From: a virus
IMG/VR virus record: IMGVR_UViG_3300027782_000054
Location: 1 to 64,000 of that record
DNA length: 64,000 nucleotides
Reading direction: 5' to 3' (one strand)
The notes beneath the pieces are model-generated. The model ran no database searches. It saw nothing but the letters and a program-made list of their open reading frames with translations, and had not been told where the DNA came from. The position numbers were made by a program, and so were the translations under genes. Numbering within the stretch: position 1 is the first letter of the stretch; the number at the start of each line of letters is the position of its first letter. Below are positions 35,373 to 64,000 of the stretch, one piece after another.

Positions 35373-35539
35373 CATATGGAAGTAATATACTGCCATCCAA
35401 GTTTGGTCGTGGAAAAGATGATCCCCAGGAATGGACTTGCATCTGCGATAAACATAATAGAAGATGGCACAAGAAGTGTCAGGTCTGTGGTATTGACAAG
35501 GATCTAGCTAAGAAAGCGATTCATGAATCTAAGCAGTAA
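35369..35539 (+). CDS. RanBP2-like zinc-finger mini-protein (not in ORF track)
   Basis: EWTCICDKHNRRWHKKCQVCG. Confidence 0.6.
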   Translation: MTYGSNILPSKFGRGKDDPQEWTCICDKHNRRWHKKCQVCGIDKDLAKKAIHESKQ

Positions 35540-36527
35540 ACTTGGGTTAGGTCTGACCTATGGAGATGTTCTTCTTGTCCCTAAATTAGGGATTGTCTCA
35601 TCTAGAACAGAAGTTAATACAGATACTTTCCTAACAGAGAGTATTAAGATGACGGTTCCAATCGTTGCAGCGCCAATGTCTTCTGTTACTAATGCTAAAG
35701 TAGCTAGGTCAATTTCTATGATGGGCGGTAGCGCTTTCATCCATAGAAATCAGGCAGTAATGTATCAGGTAAACGAATGGAGTGATTCAAGAGCTAATAA
35801 CACCAATTCAGGTAATGTAGGATGCGCTGTAGGTATCACTGAAATGGTGGGAGATAGGCTCATCCATCTTTATAAATATGGCTGTAGATTATTCTGTTTA
35901 GATATTGCCCATGCTCATTCAGTTTATGCTGAAAAATGGCTTAGTAGTATCCCCGGCTACATCATGGATGAGTCTGAGTTTATTTTTGGGTCAATTGCTA
36001 CAGGAGAGGCTGTAGACTGGTATAAGCAAAGGTTTAACCCTGCTGGCTTCCGTGTTGGTATCGGGCCGGGAGCGGCCTGTACAACGCGGGAGAAGACTGG
36101 TCATGGAGTACCCCAGCTAACCGCTGTCTCTGAATGTGTTCATGCTGCTGATGGTATTCCAGTTATTGCTGATGGTGGAATTAACACATCAGGAGATATC
36201 GTCAAAGCACTTGCGGTTGGCGCATCTTCTGTTATGCTTGGTAGGCTCCTAGCAGGAGCAGAAGAATCACCTCATCCAGGTCATTATTATGGGATGGCAA
36301 GTGATAGAGCTAAGAAAGAATTGGGCTACACTTCTGAATTTACAGAAGGTGTAGAAGCAGAGGTTCCAGTACATGGAACTATTGAGAGTATTGTTAATTC
36401 ACTTATGTCTGGAATAAAATCTGGCATTAGTTATTCTGGTGGTAAAGATATTCGTGGTCTTCAAAAAAACTATGAATTTATTAAGGTATCTCCTGCCACT
36501 GAAAAAGAGAGTAATGTTAGAGTATGA
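35523..36527 (+). CDS. IMP dehydrogenase / GMP reductase family (no CBS domain)
   Basis: [46 protein letters not shown]. Confidence 0.9.
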
Positions 36528-38083: not shown

Positions 38084-38470
38084 ATGATTCGTAGACATGG
38101 ACAGCCCGACGGATTTTGGGGCGTAGGTACAACTCAGGAAGTGACTGGCGCTAGTGGTGCTTCACGCGCCGTCCAGCTTGGTCAAGCTGTTAGCCAGTTT
38201 ATTGTCTATTTAGACGTTTCTGGTGCTACAGTGATTACCATTCAAGCTGCTCATTCAGGAGAACCTGATGTAGATGGTACAGGTCAACAGCCGCCGGATC
38301 TTTCTACTTATAAAGATCTTTATTGGATAGCTGATCCAATGACTATTACCTTCGTTGGCAGTGGTTCCAGGGCAGTAATTGTCCCTGACTTTACTCCAGG
38401 TTGGGTAAGACTCACAAGTTCAAACAGCGTTAGCTGTCTCGCCGGTTGGGAAGTCTCAGCGGGAGACTGA
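38084..38470 (+). CDS. Putative virion beta-sandwich protein
   Basis: 128 aa, beta-rich, GWVRL motif, start of structural block. Confidence 0.6.
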   Translation: MIRRHGQPDGFWGVGTTQEVTGASGASRAVQLGQAVSQFIVYLDVSGATVITIQAAHSGEPDVDGTGQQPPDLSTYKDLYWIADPMTITFVGSGSRAVIVPDFTPGWVRLTSSNSVSCLAGWEVSAGD

Positions 38471-38482
38471 AAGGGATAAATT

Positions 38483-39034
38483 ATGGCAACATGGGCAGTT
38501 TACGGAGCTTTACAAAGCAGTGGTACTTTACAGTTAAATGCGACAGATCATATCTGGCTTACTGGCACATCATTTAGTAATAATGTTGTTGCTGGTACGT
38601 ATCAGGATGGTACGCATATTTCAGATTCAAATGATGTTCAAAGAGACACAGCTTCGCCTATAAATAATGTGAAGTATGTTACATCAAGCACGGCATCACT
38701 TAATGGTGCATCTGCTGTTGCTCTTAGCTCTATATCACAAACGTACGTTTCATTTAAGTTTGTTTTTTCAGACGTAGGTTCTGTTGCAACCTCTGCTGCT
38801 AAATTCTATGCTTATGATGGAGTAACAGATACCACCGCCCTTATTGGAATTGATTTCCAGGCAGCAGAACAAGGAAACTCAACTTGGACTGCTGCAAATG
38901 GTTCTGGTTCTGCGTTAAGCCTTGCTAATCAAGGCGCAAGTACAACACACAACTTCTATGTTATTCTATCTGCTTCACCAACATCTCCTGGTGCTAAATC
39001 AGGATCTGTTAAATTAACAATTACCTATTCGTGA
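38483..39034 (+). CDS. Putative virion structural protein
   Basis: 183 aa, S/T/A/G-rich, ends GSVKLTITYS. Confidence 0.65.
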   Translation: MATWAVYGALQSSGTLQLNATDHIWLTGTSFSNNVVAGTYQDGTHISDSNDVQRDTASPINNVKYVTSSTASLNGASAVALSSISQTYVSFKFVFSDVGSVATSAAKFYAYDGVTDTTALIGIDFQAAEQGNSTWTAANGSGSALSLANQGASTTHNFYVILSASPTSPGAKSGSVKLTITYS

Positions 39035-40211: not shown

Positions 40212-46118
<5,907 letters not shown>

Positions 46119-46140: not shown

Positions 46141-46938
46141 ATGGCTAATACCGCCGCACAAACATACGTAGGAGCTACTGGTGTAACTGGTCCAGCTGGC
46201 GCTGCTGGTGCATCCGGTTCTACAACTTATGCAGGCAGTCTTGCCTCTTCATCTTCAGTTGCAGTTTCATCTGGAAATCAGACATATCTTCTGACTGGCA
46301 CAACTGGAGTAACTACCGTTACAGGTGGCACAAGTGGTTCAATATTAACTCTCATCGCTTCAGGGCAAGCCACGGGCGTCTGTGTCGTTCTCAACCATGC
46401 GGCATCTACCAACAACCTGTCGCTGCGTGACTCCGCAAACCTAGGGATTTACGCTGGTGAGTCCGTCACGTTCGTGTACGACGGAACAAAGTGGGTTGAG
46501 ATTGCCCGCGACCTTCGCAAAGTGCTGTCGTACAACTTTGCTGAAGCTTCCGGCAGTATTTCGTCAACGACCGTGGCTGGCGGAAACACGTTGGCTACAG
46601 CATCTTCGATTACGTTTGATGGTGCAACGCCCATTGTAATCACCCTCTACCTCTACTACTGGGCGACCGGTTCAACAGCCGGTAGCGCGGTCTTTGCAAA
46701 CCTGTGGGATGGCGCTACCGCAAAAAACCGAGTCGCGTACCTAAGTAACAGTGCGGTCGCTTCCGCGCAGTCCTTGACTCTGTTCACGCAGGTTCGGTTG
46801 ACGCCTACGGCTGCGGCTCGCGCCTACTCAATTCGTGCTTTTCGCGCAACCTCAAACGGAGAATGGGGAACAACCGATAATCCGAGCGCCACCGGCGATA
46901 ACGGGCAGGGTTTCATTCGCATTGAGCGGGACATCTAA
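46141..46938 (+). CDS. Cassette protein 1 (class A; putative fibre tip/adhesin)
   Basis: Shared core LSLRDSANLGIYAGESVTFxYDGTKWVE; GC-rich 3' part. Confidence 0.75.
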   Translation: MANTAAQTYVGATGVTGPAGAAGASGSTTYAGSLASSSSVAVSSGNQTYLLTGTTGVTTVTGGTSGSILTLIASGQATGVCVVLNHAASTNNLSLRDSANLGIYAGESVTFVYDGTKWVEIARDLRKVLSYNFAEASGSISSTTVAGGNTLATASSITFDGATPIVITLYLYYWATGSTAGSAVFANLWDGATAKNRVAYLSNSAVASAQSLTLFTQVRLTPTAAARAYSIRAFRATSNGEWGTTDNPSATGDNGQGFIRIERDI

Positions 46939-47010
46939 TGTCTCCGAACTTTTTCACTAGGTGTTTTTTTTGATGCGTACGAGAAGTTTCCCGGCATTGG
47001 TATAGGCTAA
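46938..47010 (+). pseudogene. Degenerate copy of 50638 small protein
   Basis: MSPNFFTRCFF* then, one base out of frame across a T8 run, DAYEKFPGIGIG*, matching CFPDAYDKYPGLGIG of 50638. Confidence 0.65.
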
Positions 47011-47087
47011 TTAATATTAATTTTGCCCAAAACCTTTATTTTTACTCTACAACCAAGAATAATATATAGAATGAATGGATTAACACA

Positions 47088-47414
47088 ATGACTGATGTTG
47101 TCACTAAATTTTATCAGGGGTATCTAGCTCCTTCTGGAACCAATATTACAGGAGTAGCTCCTGCTGCCACAAACTTTACTATTAAGCATATTGTATTTAG
47201 TAATGTAGGTACAGGAAGTGCTTCAATTGCTTGTGGATATAACAATATTGCCGTTTCTTCTAATTATATTATGCCAAGCGGCATTGTCATTGGTGCTGGA
47301 GAATGGGCAGAATCCACAGACATCTATGTTCTTAATGCTGGAGACTCATTATTTGCCGCAGCATCAGTCAGCGGTACAATTACCGCCACTGTCCATGGAA
47401 TCACTAGTACCTAA
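47088..47414 (+). CDS. Small jelly-roll-type virion adaptor protein
   Basis: 108 aa; IKHIVFSN, VLNAGDSL, ITATVHG pattern common next to phage fibres. Confidence 0.65.
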   Translation: MTDVVTKFYQGYLAPSGTNITGVAPAATNFTIKHIVFSNVGTGSASIACGYNNIAVSSNYIMPSGIVIGAGEWAESTDIYVLNAGDSLFAAASVSGTITATVHGITST

Positions 47415-47431
47415 ACTAGGGCAGGAATCGT

Positions 47432-48229
47432 ATGGCCTGGAAATTCTTTAATAATAGTGGACAGCAGAAGATTAATAGTCCTACATATGATTTTGCTACC
47501 GTTTCTTCAGCATCTTCTATTGCCATAGCAAACAATACCGTGAATTCAGTTACGGGGACAACAACTATCTCTTCTATGACTAATGGAGTGCCTGGAAGCA
47601 TCGTTACTCTTCAAGCTTCGGGTCAGGCTAATGGTACATGTCTTATCTTAGCAAATGGAACTGGATCAAATAATCTTTCATTAAGAGATAATCAAAATTT
47701 TGGTATTTACGCCGGTGAATCAGTTACTTTTCAATATAATGGTTTTAAGTGGGTTGAAGTTAATCGTAATATAAGAACTATTCTCCAAACAGTTAGAGTT
47801 ACTACTGCAACAACAATTACTGCAACTACTTCAACTTCAGGAAACTCTGGTGGAACATTAATAGCTGACTTGGGCGCAATGTCATTTGATGGAACTACTC
47901 CAATGTCTCTTGAATATCATATTCCATATATATATTCAAGTTTAAATGTAAATGGAATTAGTCGTGTTTTATTTTGGCAAACTTCTCCTTCTAGCATCCA
48001 GATAAGTAGTTACTTTTTATATTACCAACCCGACAATGCAGGACAAGAGTATTTTTCAATGAAAAACTCTTATCGTTTTACTCCTTCAGCTGGATCTGCT
48101 ACATATAGATTAACAGCTAATCGTGACAGCTCTGGAGTCAGTTCATCTGCTGCAGTGGCTGGAACTAATAATTCAGGAGGCCAATGCACAGGATACTTCA
48201 GAATTGCAAGATCTCTATCTTATGCTTAA
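47432..48229 (+). CDS. Cassette protein 2 (class B)
   Basis: MAWKFFNNSG start plus shared core. Confidence 0.75.
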   Translation: MAWKFFNNSGQQKINSPTYDFATVSSASSIAIANNTVNSVTGTTTISSMTNGVPGSIVTLQASGQANGTCLILANGTGSNNLSLRDNQNFGIYAGESVTFQYNGFKWVEVNRNIRTILQTVRVTTATTITATTSTSGNSGGTLIADLGAMSFDGTTPMSLEYHIPYIYSSLNVNGISRVLFWQTSPSSIQISSYFLYYQPDNAGQEYFSMKNSYRFTPSAGSATYRLTANRDSSGVSSSAAVAGTNNSGGQCTGYFRIARSLSYA

Positions 48230-48247
48230 ATATTAAGGATTATCAAT

Positions 48248-49027
48248 ATGGCATGGAATTTTTTTACAAATAATGGATCTACCAAATATAATTCAGGTGG
48301 GAATAGTCCTATTGTCGTAGCATCTGCTGCCTCTATTTCAATAACTAGCAATACTGTGAATTATATTACAGGGACAACATCTATAAGCTCTATGACTGGT
48401 GTAGCGCCAGGGGACACCGTAACTCTTTCTGCTTCCGGTCAAGCAACTGGTGGCTGTCTTATCCTAGTGCATGGAACCGGATCAAATAACCTTTCTCTTA
48501 GAGACTTGGCAAATTTCGGTATATATAATGGCGAATCGGTTACCTTCCAATACACAGGCTCATATTGGGTTGAAATCAATCGTAATGTAAAAGAGATTAT
48601 TAACTATAAATCTATTACAGCAGATACTTCTGTGACAACTTCATATAGCGAGACTTTTGCGGGTGTTTTCAATGTAGCCACAACGGACAATATAACATAC
48701 GATGGAGTCACTTATGTTGATATTGAAATGTATCTATCAGATCTTTATTCCCTTCTTATTAATGCAAATTTGTATCTTACCTTATGGGAAGTCAATAGCC
48801 AAACAGCAATTGGAAGAATAGCTAGGTATTCTGATCCTAGTAGCGCTGGTAATTTTCATAGACCTGGACATGGAAGAATTAGATTACAGCCTGGATCCGG
48901 AACATCTGGTGCATATCAGTATAAATTAGGCGCTAATTCCGTAACTGCCGCAACAACAATTGGAGGCGCTACTTATGCAGGTTCATACCTAAGAGTAGTA
49001 AGATCTCCCGCATCCATTTCTTCATAA
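48248..49027 (+). CDS. Cassette protein 3 (class B)
   Basis: MAWNFFTNNG start plus shared core. Confidence 0.75.
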   Translation: MAWNFFTNNGSTKYNSGGNSPIVVASAASISITSNTVNYITGTTSISSMTGVAPGDTVTLSASGQATGGCLILVHGTGSNNLSLRDLANFGIYNGESVTFQYTGSYWVEINRNVKEIINYKSITADTSVTTSYSETFAGVFNVATTDNITYDGVTYVDIEMYLSDLYSLLINANLYLTLWEVNSQTAIGRIARYSDPSSAGNFHRPGHGRIRLQPGSGTSGAYQYKLGANSVTAATTIGGATYAGSYLRVVRSPASISS

Positions 49028-49046
49028 AAAATTAGAAAGATACATT

Positions 49047-49826
49047 ATGTCTTGGAATTTATTTACAAACTACGGATCTATTAAGAAAAACACAACAAAA
49101 CAGACAACTGGAGTTGCCACAGTAGCTTCTGCGTCGTCTATTGCTGTAACCAATAACGCCATTAACTATATTACAGGTACAACAGGTATTACCAATATGA
49201 CCGGAGGAGTACTAGGAGGCATAGTTACCCTTATAGCATCCAATCAAGCCGCTGGAGCTTGTGTTGTTTTAAATCATGGTACATCAACAAACAATCTTTC
49301 TCTTAGAGATTCTATAAATCTAGGTATATATGCCGGTGAATCAGTGACTTTTCAATACAACGGTTCATATTGGGTTGAAATTAACCGTAATTTAAGAACT
49401 ATCATTGAGAATAAAGCTACTACATCTGCTATTACAACCATTACAACAACTGATACCTCATCATCTACATTGTTTGCTTCAACAAGCAGCATAACATATG
49501 ATGGTGCAACATATATTACTCTTGAAGTTTTTGCCCCAACTTGTGCGCCTCCAGCTATAGCCGGTAATTACGTTATTGCTACTGTTTATGATGGAAGTAC
49601 AAATACAGGCTATATGGTCGAACGAAAAACATGTGCCAGTGGTGCAGATTATGCTTCATTTACTGGAATTTCGACAATAAGACCTACAGCAGGCGCTCAT
49701 ACATACAATGTAAGACTGTGGCAAACAGTAAATGGTGGGAACGTAACCTCTGGTGTCGGTGGTGCAGGTGCTTATGTAAATGGAGGGATAAGAGTTAGTA
49801 GACTTTTATCTGGATATACAAATTAA
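49047..49826 (+). CDS. Cassette protein 4 (class B)
   Basis: MSWNLFTNYG start plus shared core. Confidence 0.75.
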   Translation: MSWNLFTNYGSIKKNTTKQTTGVATVASASSIAVTNNAINYITGTTGITNMTGGVLGGIVTLIASNQAAGACVVLNHGTSTNNLSLRDSINLGIYAGESVTFQYNGSYWVEINRNLRTIIENKATTSAITTITTTDTSSSTLFASTSSITYDGATYITLEVFAPTCAPPAIAGNYVIATVYDGSTNTGYMVERKTCASGADYASFTGISTIRPTAGAHTYNVRLWQTVNGGNVTSGVGGAGAYVNGGIRVSRLLSGYTN

Positions 49827-49882
49827 ACTTATATTTCAAGAACAACTGTCTTATAATAAGAGAAATGAGGATAGCATAAGCA

Positions 49883-50638
49883 ATGGCATGGAATTTATTC
49901 ACTAATACTGGTAGTCAAAAGACTAGTGGTACTGTTACTGCTGGTGTTTCTACAATAGCCTCTGCATCAAGCATTGCTATCACTAATAATTCCATTCATC
50001 TTATTACCGGTACAACTGGTATTAGTGCAATGACTGGTGGAGTTCTTGGTAGTTATGTAACACTTGTTGCAAGCGGACAGGCTACTGGTGTGTGTGTTGT
50101 TCTTAACAACGGAACTACGTCCAATGCTTTGAGTTTGCGTGACTCCGCTAATCTTGGCATTTATGCGGGTGAGAGCGTGACGTTCATGTATGACGGAACG
50201 AAATGGGTCGAGATCGGCCGCGACCTTCGCAGCGTCCTCGACTACGTGCAAGGCACCTCGAACACAAACATCACTGCCACAACGGCCGGTACCGCTAACA
50301 CCATTGTGACCGCCACAGCGTTTACATCAGACGGCGCAACACCAGTCGATATCACCTATTTTGCCGCAGCCATTGACACCCCTAACGTCGTAAACGGCAC
50401 CGTTAGTCTGATCCTGTACGAAGACGGCACGAACCGCGGACGCATCGGGGACTCCCCGGGCATTCAGAACACCCGTTTTGGCTTCGGCACATATGTGACT
50501 CGGCTTACACCGGCATCTGGTTCTCGCACTTATTCAATGCGCGGATATGTTAACGGTGGTACTGGCGTGATTCAGGCCGGTGCAGGCACAACGACGACCT
50601 ACACGCCGACGTACATCAAGATCAGCAGGGCGCTCTAA
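49883..50638 (+). CDS. Cassette protein 5 (class B)
   Basis: MAWNLFTNTG start plus shared core; GC-rich 3' part. Confidence 0.75.
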   Translation: MAWNLFTNTGSQKTSGTVTAGVSTIASASSIAITNNSIHLITGTTGISAMTGGVLGSYVTLVASGQATGVCVVLNNGTTSNALSLRDSANLGIYAGESVTFMYDGTKWVEIGRDLRSVLDYVQGTSNTNITATTAGTANTIVTATAFTSDGATPVDITYFAAAIDTPNVVNGTVSLILYEDGTNRGRIGDSPGIQNTRFGFGTYVTRLTPASGSRTYSMRGYVNGGTGVIQAGAGTTTTYTPTYIKISRAL

Positions 50639-50808
50639 TGCAACTAGTCATCAAAACAGACACAACGTATAACGAAGACAGGACTGTTAATACTCAAGGC
50701 AAGTGGTGGTATGAACATCCGGATGGTTTTGTATCGGATCAATTCGATAGCAGGGACGAATGCTTCCCTGATGCTTATGATAAGTATCCTGGTCTTGGTA
50801 TAGGGTAA
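50638..50808 (+). CDS. 56-aa protein, possible fibre assembly chaperone (not in ORF track)
   Basis: TAATG-coupled; MQLVIKTDTTYNEDRTVNTQGKWWYEHPDGFVSDQFDSRDECFPDAYDKYPGLGIG. Confidence 0.65.
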   Translation: MQLVIKTDTTYNEDRTVNTQGKWWYEHPDGFVSDQFDSRDECFPDAYDKYPGLGIG

Positions 50809-50864
50809 CTGGTCTTATATTGATAAAATAACTTCCTCATAATAAGAGGAATGGGAATAATATA

Positions 50865-51647
50865 ATGACTAGTAGCTCTGAACAGACTTATATGGGTCCT
50901 GCTGGTCCTAGTGGCGCAGCTGCTCCCTATGGAATATCCACAATAGCTTCTGCGTCTACAGTAGCCATTACGTCTGGATATACACATCTTATCACTGGCG
51001 TAGTCCCCATTACTAAAATGACTGGTGGTATCCAAGGGTATACAGTGACCTTGGTCGCTTCTGCTCAATCATCTGGAATTTGTATTATCATTACCAATGG
51101 TGATGGTTTTACACAAGACACACTTAGTTTAGTTGGATCAAGATCACTTGGTCTTTATGCTGGCGAGTCTATTACTTTTCAATATGATGGTGGATCATGG
51201 AATGAAGTCGGGAGAAATCTAAAAGATATATTAGATTTTCAATCAATATCTTCGACAGTGCCTTTCACTGGTGGACAGTTCTCTATAGCACAACTCGTAA
51301 TAGCACATAATGCTATCACGTTTGATGGTGCGACTCCTATTGAAATTAAGTTTCATTGTCCAGCAATTACCGCTCAAAAACCCTATGGTAGCGATGGTAT
51401 ATCAATACAGATATGGGCAGGAACGGTCTATACTGCGGATATTGGATACATGGGAAAAGGAAATATCCAAAGTTCTAGTTACATTGGATCATACTCTCGA
51501 TACTTTATTCCTCCTCACTCATCAGTACAATATACCATTAGAGTTTTGGGAACTGTTGAAAGTCCAGGTTCAAATTATATTCAAGCAGGAAATAGTAGTT
51601 CAGGTAATTATGGAAATGCTTACTCAGTAATAAGAAGAGCGATTTAG
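50865..51647 (+). CDS. Cassette protein 6 (class A)
   Basis: MTSSSEQTYMGPAGPSG start plus shared core. Confidence 0.75.
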   Translation: MTSSSEQTYMGPAGPSGAAAPYGISTIASASTVAITSGYTHLITGVVPITKMTGGIQGYTVTLVASAQSSGICIIITNGDGFTQDTLSLVGSRSLGLYAGESITFQYDGGSWNEVGRNLKDILDFQSISSTVPFTGGQFSIAQLVIAHNAITFDGATPIEIKFHCPAITAQKPYGSDGISIQIWAGTVYTADIGYMGKGNIQSSSYIGSYSRYFIPPHSSVQYTIRVLGTVESPGSNYIQAGNSSSGNYGNAYSVIRRAI

Positions 51648-51655
51648 GATATACA

Positions 51656-52438
51656 ATGACAAGTAGTATTTCACAAGTATATATAGGAACAATGGGACAA
51701 ACTGGACCCACTGGTCCTACTCATAATTCAGGATCTATTCATATATATTCAGATTCTTCTATTGCAATAACCCCCTACTCCACAAACTATATACAGCTTG
51801 GGGATAATCAGATTATCCAATCCATGACAGGGGGATCACCTGGGGATATTATAAATATAAAATCAGATGTATTCCCTCCTCCTGACATCCCCGGAAAAAC
51901 TTATCTTACTCTGCAGAATGGCGTTGGATCAAATAGCCTTTTATTGAGAGATTCTAAGGATGTTAGTCTTTATATTGATGATTCAGTAATGTTTCAGAAT
52001 GATGGAACTCAATGGATTGAAATAAGTCGCAATATTCAAAAAGTATTGTCTCATCAATCATCATCTTCTTCAAAAACTATCAATCATAATACTGAGGCCA
52101 CTGCTAGTCTAGCCCTTACTCATGATCAATTTGAGTTTGATGGATCTACTGCAATAGAAATTATGTACTTTATGCCTAAACTTGACTTAGCCGACACAAG
52201 CTTTTCTGTAATATTATTTGACAATGGTTCTTCTGTAGGCAAAATGGGATATTCAAATATTACGGCAACTTACCCATCTTCTGTTTCACAACTTTTAACA
52301 CCGACATCTGGAAGCCATGAATATAGTATTAGATTATTGAATTCAGGAAGCAATCCAACGACTATATCTGCAGGCGCTGGTACTTCATCAGGGTCTAATC
52401 CAGGCCCAATGTATTCAATAATGAGAAGGATATCGTAA
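51656..52438 (+). CDS. Cassette protein 7 (class A)
   Basis: MTSSISQVYIGTMGQTGPTG start plus diverged core. Confidence 0.75.
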   Translation: MTSSISQVYIGTMGQTGPTGPTHNSGSIHIYSDSSIAITPYSTNYIQLGDNQIIQSMTGGSPGDIINIKSDVFPPPDIPGKTYLTLQNGVGSNSLLLRDSKDVSLYIDDSVMFQNDGTQWIEISRNIQKVLSHQSSSSSKTINHNTEATASLALTHDQFEFDGSTAIEIMYFMPKLDLADTSFSVILFDNGSSVGKMGYSNITATYPSSVSQLLTPTSGSHEYSIRLLNSGSNPTTISAGAGTSSGSNPGPMYSIMRRIS

Positions 52439-53181
52439 TGGCTAGTAGCTCTCTACAAGTATATCCTGGCCCTACTGGTGCTACTGGAGCAGCTATACCC
52501 GCTAGTATTTCAACCATAGCCTCTAGTGGCTCTATTGCAATTACTCCAGACTATACTCATTTAATTACTGGAACAAATACAATAAGCACGATGACTGGTG
52601 GAACTACTGGATCAACCGTTATTCTCATTGCTTCTGAAAGTGACATACTTATACTAAGTCATGATACTGGGTCAGATAATTTAAAACTAAGAGACAGTAA
52701 GAATTTTGGCATCTATTCTGGTGAATCTGTGACTTTCCAATATGATGGCACAAAATGGATAGAAGTTGGTCGTAATACCAGATCAATCCTTAGCTACAAA
52801 TCTACTCAATCTGCTATTACTGTCAGTGGAACATCTGAAGCTACTGCTGTATCTCTCTTTAGCCATGACTCTATCCCTTGCGATGGAGTAACTCTAGTCC
52901 AAATTGAATTTAGTTGCAACGCATTGACATCCAGTACGTCTAGTGATACATATTTTGTACTTTTTGAAGACGGAGTATCAAAAGGATTCATAGGAGTAAG
53001 CACCATGGACTCAGTATCATACCCGATAACAACTTCTAGAATATTCACACCTTCATCTGGAAATCATCAATATTCTATAAAAGCCTATAGAACTACTGGG
53101 AACAATACTATCCAGGCTGGCAATGGAACATCGGGAAATTACAGCGCTGCATATTCTATAATTACAAGAGTTTTCAGGTAA
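52438..53181 (+). CDS. Cassette protein 8 (class A)
   Basis: MASSSLQVYPGPTGATG start plus shared core. Confidence 0.75.
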   Translation: MASSSLQVYPGPTGATGAAIPASISTIASSGSIAITPDYTHLITGTNTISTMTGGTTGSTVILIASESDILILSHDTGSDNLKLRDSKNFGIYSGESVTFQYDGTKWIEVGRNTRSILSYKSTQSAITVSGTSEATAVSLFSHDSIPCDGVTLVQIEFSCNALTSSTSSDTYFVLFEDGVSKGFIGVSTMDSVSYPITTSRIFTPSSGNHQYSIKAYRTTGNNTIQAGNGTSGNYSAAYSIITRVFR

Positions 53182-53223: not shown

Positions 53224-55059
<1,836 letters not shown>

Positions 55060-55112: not shown

Positions 55113-56165
55113 ATGAGACTACACCTTGTTGCAATGCCCCATACTAAAGTAACCGCAGAGTTTTGCGGTTGTGCATATACGGCGAAGGCATTGAAGTTCT
55201 GCAAAATGATGACTGCTATTGGTCATGAAGTTATTCTTTACGCGCCCGAAGGCAGCGATGAGACTTATGCCAAACTAGTAGTTTGTCTTACAAATGAAGA
55301 GCGCATTGGCATCTTTGGTGAAGATGATTCATCAAGACTTCCTGCGTGGCCTAATGATGATGAGTGGAGGCTCTTTAATCAAAGAGCCATTGAGGGTATC
55401 AAGGAAAACGCAGATCCTCACGATCTTGTTCTTCTAGCATCTGGTTGGTCACAAAAGGCTATCCAAGATGCTCTTCCTGATCTTCTTTATTGTGAGCCAG
55501 GAGTAGGATATGAAGGTATCTTAACCTCAAGATGTGCATTTGAATCATATGCCTGGATGCATCATATCTATGGCAAAGCCAATATCAATGATGGTAGATG
55601 GTATGACGCTGTAATTCCAAATTACTTTGATATGGCCGATTTCCCCACTATTGGAGAAGGAAAAGGCGGTTACCTAGCTTACCTAGGCAGACTTATTCAT
55701 CGTAAGGGTGTAGAAACTGCTGCTCAAATAGCCAAAGATATGGGTATGCCATTAAAGATTGCTGGTGCAGGTCATATGAATCTACCTGGAGATGTTGAAT
55801 TTATTGGTCCAGTAAATGTGCAACAAAGGGCCGAATTCCTTGGTGGAGCAGTCGCTCTACTTACTCCAACCTATTATATTGAGCCATTTGGCGGTGTAGC
55901 CATTGAAGGAATGATGTCTGGAACACCTGTAATCACCACAGATTGGGGTGCTTTTAGCGAAACAGTCAAGAATGACGTAAGCGGATACCGTTTCAGACTG
56001 CTCCGTGAGGCCATAGAAGGCGTTGAGAAGGCTGCAAGCCTTGATCGCAATGCTGTGCGTCAGTATGCAATAGATAACTATTCACTAGAAGCCGTAGGAC
56101 CCATGTTTGATAAATGGTTTAATAACCTTCAAACACTCTGGGGCGATGGCTGGTATGCTAAATAA
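55113..56165 (+). CDS. GT4 family glycosyltransferase
   Basis: YLGRLIHRKG, EPFGGVAIEGMMSGTPVITTDWGAFSE. Confidence 0.9.
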   Translation: MRLHLVAMPHTKVTAEFCGCAYTAKALKFCKMMTAIGHEVILYAPEGSDETYAKLVVCLTNEERIGIFGEDDSSRLPAWPNDDEWRLFNQRAIEGIKENADPHDLVLLASGWSQKAIQDALPDLLYCEPGVGYEGILTSRCAFESYAWMHHIYGKANINDGRWYDAVIPNYFDMADFPTIGEGKGGYLAYLGRLIHRKGVETAAQIAKDMGMPLKIAGAGHMNLPGDVEFIGPVNVQQRAEFLGGAVALLTPTYYIEPFGGVAIEGMMSGTPVITTDWGAFSETVKNDVSGYRFRLLREAIEGVEKAASLDRNAVRQYAIDNYSLEAVGPMFDKWFNNLQTLWGDGWYAK

Positions 56166-56234
56166 AAAAGTCAATGCACAAAATAAGGTAAAAACTCTAG
56201 CATAATCTGTAGATAGTTCATAGATAGGCAATAG

Positions 56235-59200
56235 ATGGAATTTTACCCACTAGGCGACGACTCTTTAGGTACAGACGGCAGTGTTCAGCATGATATCCCC
56301 CTTGAGACTTCTGTTTCTACTTCTGTTAGGGAAAATAAAAAAGCATATGTTCTATTGGTGTCTGCTACGCAGAATGTTCTTTCGTTCCTTTATATCCTAA
56401 AAGCTGTGATCCTTGCTGCATCTATTCTCACCTCTATTCCTAATGCGATAGGAAAAGCAATTGCCAAGCGCATTCCATTTATTCAGAGTCCCTCATTTGC
56501 ATTTAGTCATGCAATTCAATTATTTATCGGCAAGATCACTGCTCTTACTCAATCATCTCTTGCTACCACAATAGTCCATGAGCTTAAGACCATTGCTATC
56601 ATAGTAGCCGACTCTGCAAATCTTACAAAAAATATCCTCTTTAATCGCTTAGTAAGTCAATCTGCCAATATTGCTCGTACAAATGCCATAGCCAAGACAA
56701 TCTTGGCTACGCAAGGCTTGTTCATTGCTGTTATTAAGGCTATCGCACTAACTATTGCTTCAAGTGTGACAACTACAGTCAATGTTGCCAAAGATCATAT
56801 TCAGCATCTTAAGGCCATCGCTGCTTCTGTACTTGGAACAGCATCTCTACTTAAGAATATTGGGTTCAATAGATCTGCTTCACAAAGCTCAAATCTATCC
56901 CGCAATAACCTTATCTCTAGAACTATTTCAGCTGCACAAAGCGCGTCATTTGGACTTGGAAGAGGCATCCAGTTCTTTATCGGGAAGTTTGTAGTTGCAA
57001 CTCAATCTTCAGTCGTAACAAAAACGGTCAAAGATCTGAAAACTATTGCAGCTTCTGTGGTAGCATCAGCCTCAATCTCTAAGGCTATCTCATTCGCTAG
57101 ATCCATTACCCAGTCTTCAAATCTAAGTGCTGCAAAAGCCTTTAGTCAACTTATCTCTGTTGTTCAATCTACTAACTATGCCCTTGCCAAGGGTTTCCAA
57201 ATGCTTGTCGGCAAGTTTGTTATCTTCACTCAAGCTTCAGTTATTAGAAAAGCAGTTAAAGAGCTAAAGACAATCTCTGCCATAGTAGCTGATTCTGTCA
57301 ATATTGCTAAACTTATCTCATTCAAGAGATTAGCGGGTGCTGTTAATTCAGGTTTCCTAGCTAAAGAAACATCTCTCGTTCGTCGCGTAACACAGTCCTC
57401 TTCCTATGGATTCACCAGAGGGTTCCGCATGGCTATTGGCAAGTTTATTGTAAGTACAGTTGGCTCTGTCATTAGGAAAACAGTCCAAGAGCTTAAAACG
57501 ATCTCTGCCACTGTGTCAGACTCTGTCACTCTTTCTAAGGCTAAGTCACTTACTCTGGCGATTCTGCAGTCATCCAGTCTCTCTCCGACTAAGGCTATTG
57601 GTAAATTTGTATCTGCTTCTCAAGGAGCAGCTTATGGATTTACCAAGGGTTTCCAGATGGTGGTTGGAAAGATTATTATTGCCACGGATGCTTCTGTTGT
57701 CCGCAAAGCAGTACAAGAACTTAAGACCATTTCAGCTACAGCATTAAGTTCTGTCAGTGTACTTAAGAACATCCTATTTAATAGAACGGCTTCCCAGTCT
57801 GCTACATCTACATTAACAAAGTTTATATCAAAAACAATAATTGTCTCACAAAGCATTGTTGCTTATATAACCAAGGCTATCAATAAGCTCATTCAGGGTA
57901 TTAATGTTGCAACACAAGTATCAGTCAATTCAGACATTATTCTTCACCTGAAGGCCATCTCTGTTGCAGTTGCAAACTCAGCATCTCTAATGAAGGCAAT
58001 CTTATTCAATAGACTTGCTACTCAATCAGAAAGCCTCGCACAAAATAAATTCATTGCAAAGACAACCTCTTCCATTCAGTCTTTATCTTACGGCTTTGTA
58101 AAAGGATTCCAGATGGTGGTTGGAAAGATTATTGTCGATGCACAGGCTTCAGTTATTCGCAGAACAGTACAGGAACTTAAGTTTATCTCTGCAGCTGTAG
58201 CCAACTCAGCCACAATAGCCAAGAGCGTTCTATTTAATAGGATCGCCACTCAATCATCAACTGTCTTCATCGCCAAGGCTATAAGTAAAACTATTGCATT
58301 CGCTCAAAGCCTTATCTTTGTCTTTACTAGAGGAATGCAACTCTTTGTCAGCAAGACTATAGTTGATGTATCTGCCTCAGTCGTAAGAAGATCTATTAGT
58401 GAACTTAAGGCTATCTCAGCGACAGTATCTAACTCAGTCAATCTTATGAAGAGTGTTCTTTTCAATCGCATAATTGTACAGTCATCTACTTCTCGTCTAA
58501 CAAAGGCAATCTCTAGATTTGTTGATTTTGCTCAAGCAGCAACTGTTGCTCTAACAAACAATAGAGCTATATACCAAACTATATCTACACAAGTATCATC
58601 TTCAATAGCTCGCATTATTGATGTCTCTAAGGGTGTCGCCTCTAGCGTAGCCACCTACTCAATGCCATTCAAGGCGATAACTCTTGATATTGCCAAGATC
58701 ATCTCTGCTTCAGTCGTGACTGTTGCCAAGGACAACATAAGAGAATTTAAGATGATTGCAATATCTGTAGCTAACTCAGTTTCAATAGCGAAGGCAATTG
58801 TATTTAATCGGTTTGTAAATCAATCAAGCAGTTTAACGAGAAATGTTGCTATTAATAAAGCCGTATCAATTTCTCAGAGCATAGCGTTCACCTTCGCAAA
58901 GGGCGTTCAAATTGCTGTTGGTAAAATCATCGTTGCAATCCAGGCTTCTGTAGCAAGGATGACTGTTCAGGAGCTTAAAGCAATTGCCGCTTCAGTCTCT
59001 AACTCAGTAAGTGTTGCAAAGTCCACCGTGTATGCAATACAATTGTTGCAAAGCTCTAGTTTAAACCTCACAAAGTTTATCTCTAAAGCTGTTTCCGCCG
59101 GACAAGCAATATTCTTTGTCTTCGCCAAGGGCGTACAAATCCTCGTTGGAAAGACAATAGTCGCGTCTGTAGGCTCTGTAGCTAGGAAAACTGTTCAAGA

Positions 59201-62200
59201 ACTCAAAGCGATTACGGCCACTGTTGGAAACTCCGTTACTCTGTCTAAGGCCAAGTCGCTTACCTTAACCGTTCTACAGTCATCTACGCTTGGACCAGTA
59301 AAGGCCATCACAAAGTTTGTATCTGCGGCACAGGGAGCGTTATATGGCTTCACAAAGGGCTTCCAAATGGTCGTGGGCAAGGTTATTGTGTCTATCCAGG
59401 CATCAATGGTCAAAAAGTCTATAGCGGAACTTAAGGCGATTGCTGCTTCAGTTGCAAATTCAGTCAATATTACGAAAAATATCTTCTTCAATCGTGCATT
59501 CAATCAAGTTACGTCAGTTGCTCGCACTAATGCCATACACAAGAATATTAGTGCCATCCAAGGCTCACTTGTTGCAATAGCAAAATTAGTTGCATTAACA
59601 CTTAGTGCCTCTGTAAATACAATTGCGACTGTGACCAAAACTCACATTGCACATCTCAGAACCATCTCTGTCTCTGTCTTTAATGCAGCTACTTTAGTCA
59701 AGAATATCTCATTCAATAGAATCTCATCTCAGTCTGCCACTCTAATACGCGGTAAGGCTATCTCTAGAGCGGTATCTATTGCACAATCTACATTCTATGT
59801 CTTTAGCAAGGGCGTACAGATATTTGTCAGTAAGTTCATCGTAGATACTCAGGCATCTGTTGTCAGAAGAGCAGTTAAAGAGATTAAGACGATCTCTGCT
59901 ACTGTATCAAATTCAGTATCTATCGCCAAATCAATCTTATTCAATAGAAGCATCTCTCAAGCAAGTAATCTATCTTCACACAAGTCAACTAACAAATTTG
60001 TTAATGCTGTACAAAGCTCTTATTTCGTATTCTCTAGGGGAGTGCAGCTATTCATTAGCAAGTTCATCGTTGCCTCTGTTGTTTCTGTTGCCAAAGTCGC
60101 TGTTGCTGAGATCAAGGCTATCTCCGCATCTGTATCTAGCTCTGTCAATTTGACAAAGGCTATCTCATTCAGCAGATTTATTACACAATCTAATAACCTA
60201 CAGCACAACAAAACTATCTCTAAAGCAATAGATGTTGTTCAATCTTCATTCTTTGCTTTAGCCAAGGGTTTTGAAATGATCGTAGGAAAGATTGTAGTCG
60301 TAATCCAGTCTTCAGTAATAAGAAGAACAGTCAGCGAACTGAAGACTATCTCTGCTTCAGTCGCCAATTCAATCAACCTACTTAAACTTATATCATTCAG
60401 CAGAAACGTAAATCAATCTTCAGTTCCTGGGTTCACCAAGGGCTTCCAGATGTTCATCTCTAAATTCATTGTTGAAACACAAGCCACTGTAGTCAAGAGA
60501 GCAGCGGAAGAATTCAAGATAATCTCTGCCACTGTATCTAGCTCAGTATCATTAGCTAAGGAAATCTTATTTAATAGATCCCTAATCCAAGGTTCGTCAT
60601 CAACAATAGCCAAGGCGATTTCCAAATTCATATATGCATCACAAAGCACTTCAGTAAATATTGCAAAGAGAATCTCTCTAGTAATTAAGGCATCTGTTTC
60701 TACTATAGTAACTCTGATTAAGACACACGTTGCACATCTCAGGACAATTGCTGTAGCAGTCTCAAATCCAACATCGCTTATTAAAGCAGTGCAGCAACAC
60801 AAGCCTACCTTAGTAGCTTCTAATTTCGTATTCAATAAGTTTATTGGGACAGCCTTATCAGTAACACAGGGCGCTCTTTATGGATTTACCAAGGGCTTCC
60901 AAATGTTCATTAGTAAGATCATTGTCGATACTCAGTCTTCTCTGGTAAGAAGATCTATTCGTGAAATTAAGACAATTTCACTAGCAGTAATGAGTTCAGC
61001 GAATGTTGCCAAGAATATATTGTTTACTAGACTTACTACACAATCATCTATTGTATCTTTAAACAAGGTCGTATCTCTTACGATTGCCTTTGTACAAAAT
61101 ACAGCCTATACCTTCCTTAAGGGTTTCCAGATGCTCGTTGGCAAGTTTATCGTTGCAACACAGATTGCTGTAGCCAGAAAAGCAATTGCTGAAATCAAGG
61201 CTATCTCGGCTATCGTCTCAAACTCAGCTTCAATTGCAAAGGCCATCTTATTCAGTCGCAATGCTACTCAATCATCTAGTTCTGAAATCGCTAAAGCAAT
61301 CTCAAAGATTGTTCACTTCATACAGAGTGCTTCGTATTCAATTAGAAGAAATGTTTACCTAACAATATCTAGTGTTGTTAATGTATCTGTAACTCTTAGC
61401 AAGATGGGAGTAGCACATCTCAGGACTATCTCTGTATCTGTATCTAATTCAGCTACTCTAATCAAAGACCTTGTCTTTAATAGAAGTGCGTCACAAGCCT
61501 CTGTCTTGAATCCTGCTAAGTTTATCTCTAAGACTACATCTCTCGCTCAGAGCATGGCCTACGGCTTCACGAAGGGCTTCCAGATGGTTGTAGGCAAGAT
61601 CATATCTGCCACTCAAATAGCCGTAGCTAGAAAAACTGTTCAGGAACTTAAGGCAATCACGTTTGCTGCCGCTAGCAATGTAAATATTACAAAAGCTATA
61701 TTCTTAAGTACGCTTGTTACTCAGAATATATCTGCGACAATAACTAAGCTTATTGGTAAGACCTTGGAGGCTATCCAATCTGCGGTTGCTACTCTAGCTA
61801 AGAATATATCTCTAACCATACGCAGTATAGTTACCACAGTAGTAACTGTAACTAAGACTCATATTGCTCACCTCAGGACCATTTTAGCAACGGTAGGAAG
61901 TCCTGCATCCTTGGTGAAGGCAGTGCAGCAGCATAAGGTAGTCACAACCCCCCTGAGCTTTACTTTTGTTAAGCACATCAGAGAAACTCTCTACGCTTCT
62001 CAAGGCGCTGTTTACGGGTTTATCAAGGGTTTCCAGATGGTCGTCGGTAAGATCCTATCTTCTACTCAGATAACTCTTGCTAGAACAACAATTGCAGAGC
62101 TTAAGACTATCTCTCTTACTGTTGCAAATACAGCCAATCTCAATAAGGCTATCGCCTTTAGTAGAGTAGTAGCACAATCCTCAACAGTTGCTCTATTTAA

Positions 62201-64000
62201 AACTATCAATAAGTTTGTTATTGCGACCCAAGGAACATTTGCATCAATTGTTAAGAATGTCTCTCTAACAATTCTTGCATCAGTTAACACAGTCACCGAT
62301 ACTATTAGAGATATCGTCGCTCATCTCAAGACCATTGCCGTAAGCGTAGCTAATACAGCGAATCTTAGCAAGGAAATTCTATTCACTAGATTTGCGTCAC
62401 AAGTTAATACAATCAATTCTTCCAAGATTGTATCTAAGTACCTCCAGCTTTCACAGACAACAGTCTATGTCTTTACGAGAGGTTTCCAGTTATTCATTAG
62501 CAAGTTCATAGTGGCGATACAAGCTGTAGTTGTAAGAAGAGCCATTGCAGAGCTTAAAACAATCACGGCTTCAGTATTTAATACTGCTTCTATCATAAAA
62601 TCAATTGCATTTAATCGTAACGCAAGTCAATCCTCTACGATTGCTCCTCAAAAGTTTATTTCTAAAGCCACTTCATTTACTCAGGCTATGGCATATGGGT
62701 TCACTAGAGGATTCCAGATGTTCATTGGTAAGCTTGTAGTAGGGGTTCAACCAATTGTTGCTAAGCTAGCAATCTCTGAACTTAAAGCAATTACCGCAGC
62801 TGTAGCTAATTCAATTAATCTAACTAAGGATATCCTGTTCAGTAGATTCATTAGCCAATCCTCTAACCTAAAGAGATTCAATGCCATAGACAGAGCGATT
62901 GCTATTGCTCAAGGCGCAGCCTATGGGGTTACCAGGGGATTCCAGATGTTAGTTGGTAAGTTCGTTATCGCAACGCAGATGTCAGTTGCTAGAAAGACTA
63001 TCTCTGATATCAAGACCATTGCTCTTACGGTTAGCAGTAATACAAAGATTGCCAGGGATATCGTGTTCAATAGAGCAATTATCAATAACACACAAGTAAC
63101 TGTTACTAAGAGCATAAATAAGGCAATTAGCATCGCTCAAGGCATCTCTGCATCAATTGTTAAGTACATTTCACTAACCATTATTGGGTCTGTGAATACA
63201 GTCGTAACTGTGAATAGAGCAAGCATCGCACACATAAAGGCAGTATCTGCTTCTGTATCCAGCACAGTCAATCTTACAAAGAGTATTCTATTCAATAGGG
63301 CTATTGGACAATCAGTAATTGTTAACCTCACTAAGGTTGTATCTAAGACAATCACGTTTGCACAAACAGCTGCCTACAGCTTTACGAAGGGCTTCCAAAT
63401 GTTTGTTGCTAAGTTCGTAGTAGCAACTCAAATGACTGTTTCAAAGCTCACAGTAGCAGAACTAAAAACAATTTCAGCAACAGTTGCTAACTCTATATCT
63501 CTAAATAAACTTATTTCATTCAATAGAGAAATATCTCAAGCTTCTTCAGCAACCTTATCTAAGGCTATTTCCAAGCTCATCGTATTAGTCCAAACAATGT
63601 CATATGGCACAGTTAAGGCTGTAGGAATACTCGTTGGTCGTATACTTACTGTCACACAATCATCTGTTGTCAGGAAGACAATTGCAGATCTTAAGACAAT
63701 AAGTACAACAGTCGCAAGCTCTGTATCACTAGCCAAGGTCGTTGAGCTTAGACGCCTTGTGGCTCAGTTGTCAAGTCTATCTCTATCAAGAACTATAGCT
63801 CAATTCATCTCTGTATCACAACAGACTGCCTATTCACTTGCCAAGGGCTTCCAAATGTTCGTAGGTAAGATCATAATTGAAATACAAGCATCTATGGTCA
63901 GGCTCACAGGTCAAGAGCTAAAGACAATTGCTACTACCGTTGCTAACTCTGTGAGACTTTCTAAGCGTATCTCATTCAAGAGATTCGCAGTTGTTATCGA
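56235..64000 (+). CDS. Giant repeat protein, >2,588 aa, 3'-truncated by window (absent from ORF track)
   Basis: Starts MEFYPLGDDSLG. The same frame reads SKRISFKRFAVVI at the window end. The ORF track lists no closed ORF in this frame, consistent with no stop. Hierarchical repeats. Confidence 0.88.
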   Translation, partial: MEFYPLGDDSLGTDGSVQHDIPLETSVSTSVRENKKAYVLLVSATQNVLSFLYILKAVILAASILTSIPNAIGKAIAKRIPFIQSPSFAFSHAIQLFIGKITALTQSSLATTIVHELKTIAIIVADSANLTKNILFNRLVSQSANIARTNAIAKTILATQGLFIAVIKAIALTIASSVTTTVNVAKDHIQHLKAIAASVLGTASLLKNIGFNRSASQSSNLSRNNLISRTISAAQSASFGLGRGIQFFIGKFVVATQSSVVTKTVKDLKTIAASVVASASISKAISFARSITQSSNLSAAKAFSQLISVVQSTNYALAKGFQMLVGKFVIFTQASVIRKAVKELKTISAIVADSVNIAKLISFKRLAGAVNSGFLAKETSLVRRVTQSSSYGFTRGFRMAIGKFIVSTVGSVIRKTVQELKTISATVSDSVTLSKAKSLTLAILQSSSLSPTKAIGKFVSASQGAAYGFTKGFQMVVGKIIIATDASVVRKAVQELKTISATALSSVSVLKNILFNRTASQSATSTLTKFISKTIIVSQSIVAYITKAINKLIQGINVATQVSVNSDIILHLKAISVAVANSASLMKAILFNRLATQSESLAQNKFIAKTTSSIQSLSYGFVKGFQMVVGKIIVDAQASVIRRTVQELKFISAAVANSATIAKSVLFNRIATQSSTVFIAKAISKTIAFAQSLIFVFTRGMQLFVSKTIVDVSASVVRRSISELKAISATVSNSVNLMKSVLFNRIIVQSSTSRLTKAISRFVDFAQAATVALTNNRAIYQTISTQVSSSIARIIDVSKGVASSVATYSMPFKAITLDIAKIISASVVTVAKDNIREFKMIAISVANSVSIAKAIVFNRFVNQSSSLTRNVAINKAVSISQSIAFTFAKGVQIAVGKIIVAIQASVARMTVQELKAIAASVSNSVSVAKSTVYAIQLLQSSSLNLTKFISKAVSAGQAIFFVFAKGVQILVGKTIVASVGSVARKTVQELKAITATVGNSVTLSKAKSLTLTVLQSSTLGPVKAITKFVSAAQGALYGFTKGFQMVVGKVIVSIQASMVKKSIAELKAIAASVANSVNITKNIFFNRAFNQVTSVARTNAIHKNISAIQGSLVAIAKLVALTLSASVNTIATVTKTHIAHLRTISVSVFNAATLVKNISFNRISSQSATLIRGKAISRAVSIAQSTFYVFSKGVQIFVSKFIVDTQASVVRRAVKEIKTISATVSNSVSIAKSILFNRSISQASNLSSHKSTNKFVNAVQSSYFVFSRGVQLFISKFIVASVVSVAKVAVAEIKAISASVSSSVNLTKAISFSRFITQSNNLQHNKTISKAIDVVQSSFFALAKGFEMIVGKIVVVIQSSVIRRTVSELKTISASVANSINLLKLISFSRNVNQSSVPGFTKGFQMFISKFIVETQATVVKRAAEEFKIISATVSSSVSLAKEILFNRSLIQGSSSTIAKAISKFIYASQSTSVNIAKRISLVIKASVSTIVTLIKTHVAHLRTIAVAVSNPTSLIKAVQQHKPTLVASNFVFNKFIGTALSVTQGALYGFTKGFQMFISKIIVDTQSSLVRRSIREIKTISLAVMSSANVAKNILFTRLTTQSSIVSLNKVVSLTIAFVQNTAYTFLKGFQMLVGKFIVATQIAVARKAIAEIKAISAIVSNSASIAKAILFSRNATQSSSSEIAKAISKIVHFIQSASYSIRRNVYLTISSVVNVSVTLSKMGVAHLRTISVSVSNSATLIKDLVFNRSASQASVLNPAKFISKTTSLAQSMAYGFTKGFQMVVGKIISATQIAVARKTVQELKAITFAAASNVNITKAIFLSTLVTQNISATITKLIGKTLEAIQSAVATLAKNISLTIRSIVTTVVTVTKTHIAHLRTILATVGSPASLVKAVQQHKVVTTPLSFTFVKHIRETLYASQGAVYGFIKGFQMVVGKILSSTQITLARTTIAELKTISLTVANTANLNKAIAFSRVVAQSSTVALFKTINKFVIATQGTFASIVKNVSLTILASVNTVTDTIRDIVAHLKTIAVSVANTANLSKEILFTRFASQVNTINSSKIVSKYLQLSQTTVYVFTRGFQLFISKFIVAIQAVVVRRAIAELKTITASVFNTASIIKSIAFNRNASQSSTIAPQKFISKATSFTQAMAYGFTRGFQMFIGKLVVGVQPIVAKLAISELKAITAAVANSINLTKDILFSRFISQSSNLKRFNAIDRAIAIAQGAAYGVTRGFQMLVGKFVIATQMSVARKTISDIKTIALTVSSNTKIARDIVFNRAIINNTQVTVTKSINKAISIAQGISASIVKYISLTIIGSVNTVVTVNRASIAHIKAVSASVSSTVNLTKSILFNRAIGQSVIVNLTKVVSKTITFAQTAAYSFTKGFQMFVAKFVVATQMTVSKLTVAELKTISATVANSISLNKLISFNREISQASSATLSKAISKLIVLVQTMSYGTVKAVGILVGRILTVTQSSVVRKTIADLKTISTTVASSVSLAKVVELRRLVAQLSSLSLSRTIAQFISVSQQTAYSLAKGFQMFVGKIIIEIQASMVRLTGQELKTIATTVANSVRLSKRISFKRFAVVI
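56480..64000 (+). repeat. Degenerate coding tandem repeat: 18-20 aa subunits, ~76 aa (228 nt) and ~151 aa (453 nt) super-repeats
   Basis: (K/R)G(F/M/V)(Q/R) anchors at 57189, 57417, 57645, 58101, 58329, 58899, 59127, 59355, 59808 etc. Confidence 0.85.

Follow-up and report, generated by a model that had tools for sequence, protein, structure and literature searches.

A giant tandem-repeat gene of variable length in a freshwater viral contig, and its possible role as a helical fibre shaft

The window analysed here, positions 1 to 64,000 of the IMG/VR virus record IMGVR_UViG_3300027782_000054, covers the opening 64 kb of a viral contig of 95,174 bp (CheckV completeness ~60%) and ends inside a giant gene which starts with the ATG at 56235 on the + strand. 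We show that this is a real gene under selection, which encodes a strongly basic protein built from tandem 76-residue units, and that the number of these units differs between near-identical strains. We tentatively prefer the reading that its product is a virion-associated, extended alpha-helical shaft or spacer of a long fibre, encoded in a fibre-plus-glycosylation module. The original prediction, made from the letters alone, had described an unannotated basic beta-repeat protein with hierarchical periodicity, which would donate strands to, or template, copies of a small acidic subunit and so act as a ruler for a long appendage.

Open frame, selection and whole-unit length variation

The giant gene is preceded by an in-frame TAG at 56232, and its frame runs free of stops for 2588 codons to the end of the window (56235..64000, + strand), in keeping with the more than 7.7 kb of open frame first reported. 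Since ~6% of random codons are expected to be stops at the local GC content, this openness is not due to chance. We extended the frame into the rest of the contig and translated it, and no in-frame stop was found up to the TAG at 67128-67130, which closes a gene of 3631 aa spanning contig positions 56235-67130. A metagenome contig from the Joint Genome Institute, L011, is 96% identical in DNA to the giant gene over 4914 collinear bases, and the differences between the two are distributed over the three codon positions as 60/39/103. The ratio of nonsynonymous to synonymous substitution rates (dN/dS) of the giant gene against L011 was 0.385, while the shifted control frames gave 1.13 and 1.14; the adjacent GT1-family glycosyltransferase gene gave 0.02. 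The sequence occurs in freshwater and lake metagenomes of ~14 studies (2017-2025); the sequencing runs listed as containing it include no RNA run, which says nothing either way about expression. Contigs from four lake metagenome studies preserve the frame, with indels only as compensating +1/-1 changes besides in-frame skips. Taken together, the 10.9-kb open frame, a dN/dS well below that of both control frames and the retention of the frame by three independent assemblies establish that the giant open reading frame (ORF) is a real gene under selection.

The in-frame length changes are whole numbers of units. The European Nucleotide Archive (ENA) protein P0003 (3271 aa) is 95% identical to the giant protein and differs from it by a single 361-aa deletion, which is exactly five units and in register. 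L011 lacks 529 aa, or seven units, and the in-frame skips in the contigs of the four lake studies are 228, 453, 1587 and 1815 nt long, corresponding to 1, 2, 7 and 8 units. The natural in-register changes are thus of 361 aa (5 units), 529 aa (7), 605 aa (8), 151 aa (2) and 76 aa (1), and the deletions seen in other assemblies and lake metagenomes define a copy-number hot zone at about aa 1291-2495 (60105..63719, + strand). Collapse of the array by the assemblers is unlikely, because the DNA of the units has drifted apart (Tandem Repeats Finder reported no array for the gene), exact internal repeats reach 35 nt at most and the deletion junctions share only 9-14 nt. Length variation by whole units is typical of spacer or stalk repeats more than of a conserved ruler, which becomes less probable; the strict ruler role first proposed fits poorly with copy-number polymorphism among strains that are 95-96% identical.

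Repeat units, relatives and predicted fold

Iterated hmmsearch found ~46 tandem units, which fill aa 25-3591 of the giant protein (56307..64000 in the window and on to contig position 67007, + strand). Most units are 76 aa long, and a recurrent 75-aa variant carries 'KTHIAHLRTIS' in place of the canonical 'KGFQM.VGK'. At lag 76 the residue autocorrelation reached 0.30; it was 0.19-0.21 at 151/152, 227 and 303 residues, against a composition background which we estimate at ~0.09. The GFQM anchors stand 76, 151 or 152 aa apart, which gives the spacings of 228, 453 or 456 nt noted earlier. The unit quoted in the original prediction corresponds to residues 319-394 and had been divided into quarters of 20+20+18+18 residues. 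Comparison of the quarter profiles by hhalign has little power at 18-20 columns (best P 0.0045) and was replaced by a test against 500 column shuffles, in which the six pairs of quarters resembled each other at z 1.9-4.4. All pairs but one outscored at least 498 of the 500 shuffles (z 2.9-4.4), the strongest being the 18+18 pair, and the circular self-correlation of the unit profile had its maximum at shift 18. The proposed hierarchical periodicity is therefore real, clear at 76 aa and weak below that level, the division into quarters being modestly supported. Lys or Arg is conserved at unit columns 1, 9, 20, 27, 41, 47, 59 and 63.

Three parts of the protein stand out from the array within the window. 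The N-terminus, aa 1-24 (MEFYPLGDDSLGTDGSVQHDIPLE; 56235..56306, + strand), is non-repetitive, acidic and near-identical in P0003. Hydrophobicity is highest at aa 40-70 (56352..56444, + strand), a stretch which reaches a 19-residue Kyte-Doolittle mean of 2.04 and is a possible anchor or docking segment. At the very end of the window lies a non-repeat island, 'VIDPDLL' (aa 2583-2592; 63981..64000, ending at contig position 64010, + strand). This island is conserved in P0004, a 499-aa protein found with the unit profile at E 1e-48, which represents a divergent C-terminal form of the giant protein and retains, in the same order, 'VIDPDLL', a second island 'GRFATGLHxIGYGEYxY' and the C-terminal tail, which are separated by many fewer units. 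From this comparison, the non-repeat landmarks are conserved while the number of units varies freely.

The giant product has a mass of 389 kDa, an isoelectric point (pI) of 11.06 and a grand average of hydropathy (GRAVY) of +0.50, and it contains neither Cys nor Trp. Ser (13.1%), Ala (11.8%), Ile (11.6%), Val (10.7%), Thr (9.0%) and Lys (7.4%) prevail, with Ser and Thr together at 22% and Val, Ile, Thr, Phe and Tyr together at 38%. There are 412 Lys and Arg residues versus 94 Asp and Glu, leaving a net charge of about +318. The whole-protein composition thus agrees with the richness in S, T, A, V, I and K and the scarcity of acidic residues noted from part of the gene. The protein is also unlike collagen, as had been stated, with Gly at 3.3% (Gly+Pro 4.0%) and no Pfam Collagen match. 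GC skew is about -0.10 across 56001-64000 and positive in most other + strand genes of the contig; the negative skew is probably caused by the Ser/Thr/Ala/Val/Ile codon bias of the repeat.

Database searches returned very few relatives. Among 5.8 billion proteins, a word-indexed search matched only the giant protein itself and P0003; the unit profile, run exhaustively as a hidden Markov model (HMM) against 1.84 billion representatives, gave five proteins. Three of the HMM matches were marginal, with E between 3e-5 and 5e-4: P0005 and P0006, in which a LamG-type region at the N-terminus precedes tandem 18-aa 'ATQGTTPTLTKGxGKxLS' repeats, and P0007, which has tandem repeats too. When the giant unit was aligned with the 18-mer of this group by hhalign, the result was equivocal (probability 55%, E 1.2e-4, 45 columns), so that a kinship between the two repeats can be taken as a lead only. 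No family matched the giant protein in Pfam at E<=0.01 or in PHROGs at E<=0.001, and the sole NCBIfam match at E<=1 was the serine-rich NF033849, driven by composition and far under its cut-off (48.3 bits against 650), which agrees with the unannotated status given to the gene at the outset. A PDB profile search with the repeat alignment A3 gave nothing at E<=10, and 608 aa of the protein submitted to the ESM Atlas yielded a best score of 0.87, a low recognition that provided no lead. No match was found among 50,697 phage records by megablast or tblastn, and a single-protein scan of IMG/VR gave no relative. These searches suggest a repeat family without relatives beyond this phage lineage.

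AlphaFold2 (AF2) folded one 76-aa unit, with a 41-row alignment made of the giant protein's own paralogous units, into a single continuous helix of residues 2-75 with a predicted local distance difference test score (pLDDT) of 85.4, the five models ranging from 77.7 to 85.4. Four units with a 10-row alignment also came out all-helix, at a pLDDT of 32.8 which is uninformative alone, and a homotrimer of three copies of 228 aa (alignment A3), predicted without controls, scored 0.00 with an uncertain fold of the partners, which counts neither for nor against such an assembly. The hydrophobicity spectrum of the protein peaks at 6.32 (19/3), 5.42 and 3.79 (19/5) residues, all harmonics of the unit and the first of them the strongest, and has nothing in the 2-2.4-residue range. 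Measured in windows of 18 residues, alpha-band power was 25.2 versus 16.4 in shuffles, and beta-band power was 12.8 versus 18.8. Unit columns 18-45 carry a clean amphipathic, heptad-like stripe, and in columns 43-79 hydrophobic residues recur every ~6 positions. On the whole we regard a helical protein as fairly likely. The beta-prone units of the original prediction are not borne out, AF2 giving a continuous helix and beta-band power lying below that of shuffles, and the strand-donating mechanism is likewise not supported, with one predicted helix per unit. No confident stand-alone fold as a known solenoid or tape measure was obtained.

Gene neighbourhood

The giant gene lies in a run of fibre and glycosylation genes. 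The GT1-family glycosyltransferase gene (55113..56165, + strand), syntenic in L011, is separated from it by 69 nt. Farther upstream are a gene for a collagen-repeat tail-fibre protein of 1968 aa with a CBM5/12 module and a pI of 4.4 (40212..46118, + strand; Pfam Collagen match), a cassette of eight paralogous genes of 247-265 aa together with a 108-aa gene at 47088 (46141..53181, + strand; weak match to the Phage_depo_C beta-sandwich), whose products are probable interchangeable fibre tips, and a second collagen-repeat fibre gene of 611 aa, also with a pI of 4.4 (53224..55059, + strand; Pfam Collagen match). The order cassette, collagen gene, GT1 gene, giant gene is preserved in L011. The fibre genes around the giant gene are also variable in length, because the 611-aa collagen gene has a counterpart of 825 aa in L011 (L011:1525-4002), where it is followed by an extra 235-aa ORF. 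L011 appears to have fewer copies of the ~260-aa paralog, and the number of genes in the cassette may vary as well.

On its 3' side the giant gene is followed by genes for a 140-aa protein that matches tail-fibre PHROGs and carries the motif 'PTAPTA...TQIATTEFV', a 110-aa protein and a 174-aa Collar-domain protein (PF07484), in this order. Beyond the Collar gene lie two glycosyltransferases, a GT2 glycosyltransferase, a nucleoside diphosphate (NDP)-sugar epimerase, a sugar C-methyltransferase and further methyltransferases. All neighbours with a computed pI are acidic (4.0-6.6) except the 110-aa protein (pI 8.05). No promoter-like or terminator-like site was found on the + strand between the GT1 gene, the giant gene and the Collar gene. 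A sequence that matches the sigma-70 consensus at 12/12 positions (TTGACA, 17 nt, TATAAT, with an extended -10 TG) follows the Collar gene at contig 68479-68507 and suggests that the glycan-synthesis operon would be transcribed separately from it. The heptamer 'TAGATAG' is present twice just 5' of the giant ATG (56210-56228) and once 5' of the next gene (contig 67166-67173). The motif 'ATAGATAG' 5' of these two genes shows no genome-wide enrichment (it occurs 2 times in forward and 4 times in reverse orientation, with ~3 expected per strand), and the upstream copies of 'TAGATAG' may be due to chance or local duplication.

The small proteins encoded at 38084, 38483 and 39591, proposed earlier as the acidic subunits, are indeed acidic (pI 4.0-5.0). 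The 38483-39034 product (183 aa) resembles viral hypothetical clusters of 73-233 members with feature scores of 0.93-0.94, and appears to be a widespread phage protein. An obligate pairing of the giant protein with these small proteins therefore seems unlikely, since proteins like the 38483 product are widespread and only three relatives of the giant protein turned up among 1.8 billion representatives.

The terminase (24107) and the portal (30005) share 36-42% identity with their counterparts in Rhodococcus phage Finch, and the portal is also 38-41% identical to Gordonia phage and cluster-C-like mycobacteriophage portals (135-155-kb genomes). The Finch module consists of a sheath, a tube-like protein, a frameshifted chaperone, a tape measure protein (TMP) of 798 aa and a baseplate. 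No tblastn match to the Finch capsid, sheath, tube, chaperone, TMP or baseplate proteins was found on the 95-kb contig, and hence the core morphogenesis module, with its own TMP, probably lies in the missing ~40% of the genome. Relatives identified by their portal (L013-L016) stop short of the position syntenic to the giant gene. Two other regions were noted on the contig. A full-length gene of the IMPDH/GMP-reductase family at 35523-36527 (Pfam E 1.7e-78) lies among thymidylate synthase, dNMP kinase and exonuclease genes, an auxiliary nucleotide-metabolism island which interrupts the structural genes between the portal and the fibre cluster. Contig 77495-83258 holds large ORFs of 1165 aa (weak ParB-like N-terminal match) and 735 aa (weak PA14 match).

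Possible roles and likeness to known systems

After analysis of context and fold, a long appendage remains the most plausible setting for the giant protein, as first supposed. If it forms a fibre shaft, its helices would pack laterally against one another or against the nearby acidic fibre proteins to build a rod of up to ~0.5 micrometre (~3570 residues x 1.5 Angstrom, if the helix is continuous). The unique N-terminus and the hydrophobic segment would dock this rod to the virion, and the C-terminal tail and the islands would carry the small fibre and collar proteins. The conserved Ser and Thr would be helix-packing residues or targets of the adjacent glycosyltransferases, and the number of units would tune the length of the rod and so its reach toward sparse, negatively charged lake host cells. 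A bolder version, which we put forward as a speculation with little likelihood, is that the protein is a cationic alpha-helical tether of up to ~0.5 micrometre, a new kind of appendage made of a lineage-only repeat, neutralised or sheathed by acidic fibre proteins and glycans, and tuned in length by 76-residue units to give a wider capture radius for small, sparse freshwater hosts.

Several points weigh against a fibre shaft. The helix call comes from one AF2 prediction on paralogous repeats, the model of four units being unconfident, and crude propensities lean to beta (mean beta propensity 1.11 versus alpha 1.03). Outside columns 18-45, hydrophobic residues spaced every ~6 positions would wrap round a helix. 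Chains that each carry a net charge of about +318 and hardly any acidic residues could form a homo-oligomer only with partners that neutralise them, a GRAVY of +0.50 is unusual for an exposed fibre, and we know of no phage fibre of such a composition. Further, the contig lacks all recognisable tail genes, and a tape-measure role stays a rival.

According to that rival, to which we give a low probability, the giant protein would be the TMP of a very long tail (~0.5 micrometre), in which a helical rod fills the lumen of the tube with its basic surface toward an acidic wall and the number of units sets the length of the tail. The giant gene is the longest on the contig, repetitive and predicted all-helical by AF2, about half of the catalogued TMPs have tandem repeats (PMC13585406), and giant TMPs exist, such as the 5006-aa gp95 of Thermus phage P74-26 with a tail of nearly 1 micrometre. 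The TMPs of Finch and P74-26, however, are encoded directly behind the tube and chaperone genes and ahead of those for the distal tail or baseplate, whereas the giant gene is flanked by a glycosyltransferase and fibre/collar genes. No other TMP can be recognised on the 95-kb contig, but the whole head-tail module is missing from what is a 60%-complete contig, and the phage's own TMP is presumably in the missing part; the nearest relatives by portal and terminase are phages of 135-155 kb, of which Finch has a tail sheath and an ordinary 798-aa TMP. Small acidic proteins of unassigned family, 17 kb upstream, would suit a TMP, and whole-unit indels would simply alter tail length. Against these, the giant protein matches no TMP model in Pfam, PHROGs or NCBIfam, and blastp against two verified TMPs gave E=0.05 at best. 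In composition the giant protein is the reverse of the two TMPs (pI 11.1 versus 5.1 and 6.2; GRAVY +0.50 versus -0.75 and -0.29; beta-branched and aromatic residues 38% versus 18-20%), which upholds the earlier remark that it is unlike tape measures.

Two further explanations appear more doubtful still. One is a polycationic, amphipathic binder that is not a fibre, in which each ~19-aa Lys-rich hydrophobic segment would act as one cationic amphipathic peptide on a polyanion or membrane, for example host envelope polymers or membrane at infection, or DNA in the capsid. The pI of 11.06, the net charge, the positive hydropathy, the dearth of acidic residues, the conserved basic columns and the hydrophobic, transmembrane-like N-terminal stretch would all suit it; but the gene sits within a fibre gene run, a strictly periodic, length-polymorphic array with conserved ends suggests an elongated structural element rather than a dispersed binder, and no precedent is known to us. 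We consider it improbable. Slightly less probable yet is a beta-solenoid or triple beta-helix fibre, with each 18-20-aa quarter as a triangular ~19-residue coil of three ~6-residue sides, giving a rod of ~90 nm as a single chain or ~275 nm as an intertwined trimer. The strongest hydrophobic harmonic, 6.32 residues or 19/3, the 6-residue spacing over columns 43-79 and the many i/i+2 hydrophobic pairs speak for such coils, as do the propensities and the 38% of V, I, T, F and Y; yet beta-band power is below that of shuffles, with no periodicity at 2-2.4 residues, turn formers are few (Gly+Pro 4.0%) and AF2 gives a continuous helix at pLDDT 85. The weakly similar P0005-P0007 have Gly/Pro-containing 18-aa repeats which fit a continuous helix poorly, although the tie to this family is itself equivocal.

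Few parts of environmental phage genomes are as poorly understood as giant orphan genes, and the features found here (390 kDa, a near-perfect 76-residue period, a predicted helix, pI 11, positive hydropathy and unit polymorphism) are not matched together in known phage structural proteins. Whether fibre shaft or tape measure, the repeat represents a new protein family. If the fibre shaft is true, the protein would be among the longest phage appendage proteins known, and its alleles would offer a natural experiment on the effect of reach on meeting hosts in dilute waters. As a tape measure it would found a new class, aberrant in composition and located outside the canonical tail module. With glycosylation genes adjoining its own, the protein is a candidate target of protein glycosylation by phage-encoded enzymes.

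Among known systems, TMPs (P74-26 gp95; Finch gp48, 798 aa) resemble the giant protein in being very long, predicted helical, often repetitive, changed in length in frame and typically encoded by the longest gene; the giant protein differs in the lack of a family match, in its neighbourhood and in its opposite composition and charge. The uncharacterised metagenomic proteins with LamG (PF13385) and 18-mer repeats (P0005-P0011) share the 18-aa period and a conserved Gln and Lys, and their occasional 20-aa 'KTHLLTLS' variant resembles the variant units of the giant protein. They differ in being only ~600 aa long, with an N-terminal lectin-like domain and Gly/Pro in most repeats; the similarity is marginal, and they are absent from annotated phages save for one match to the LamG region. 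Glycosylated actinophages likewise have glycosyltransferase genes among structural genes, and the portal and terminase described here are related to those of actinobacteriophages. Reportedly, the substrates in such virions are capsid and tail-tube subunits, with no giant repeat protein among them. T4 fibritin, a trimeric coiled-coil phage fibre, is comparable as a helical rod which serves as a fibre or whisker shaft with unique docking and folding ends, but the giant protein is ~7x longer, strictly 76-aa periodic, nearly devoid of acidic residues and mostly without a clean heptad stripe. The stalks of bacterial trimeric autotransporter adhesins, and other surface stalks that vary in repeat number, are built of helical repeats whose periodicity departs from the heptad (15 or 19 residues in 4 or 5 turns), and the 3.79-residue harmonic of the giant protein equals 19/5; unlike these stalks, it is phage-encoded, far more basic and hydrophobic, and without homology, membrane anchor or head domains. 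Another likeness is that in these stalks the number of repeats differs between strains and sets their reach.

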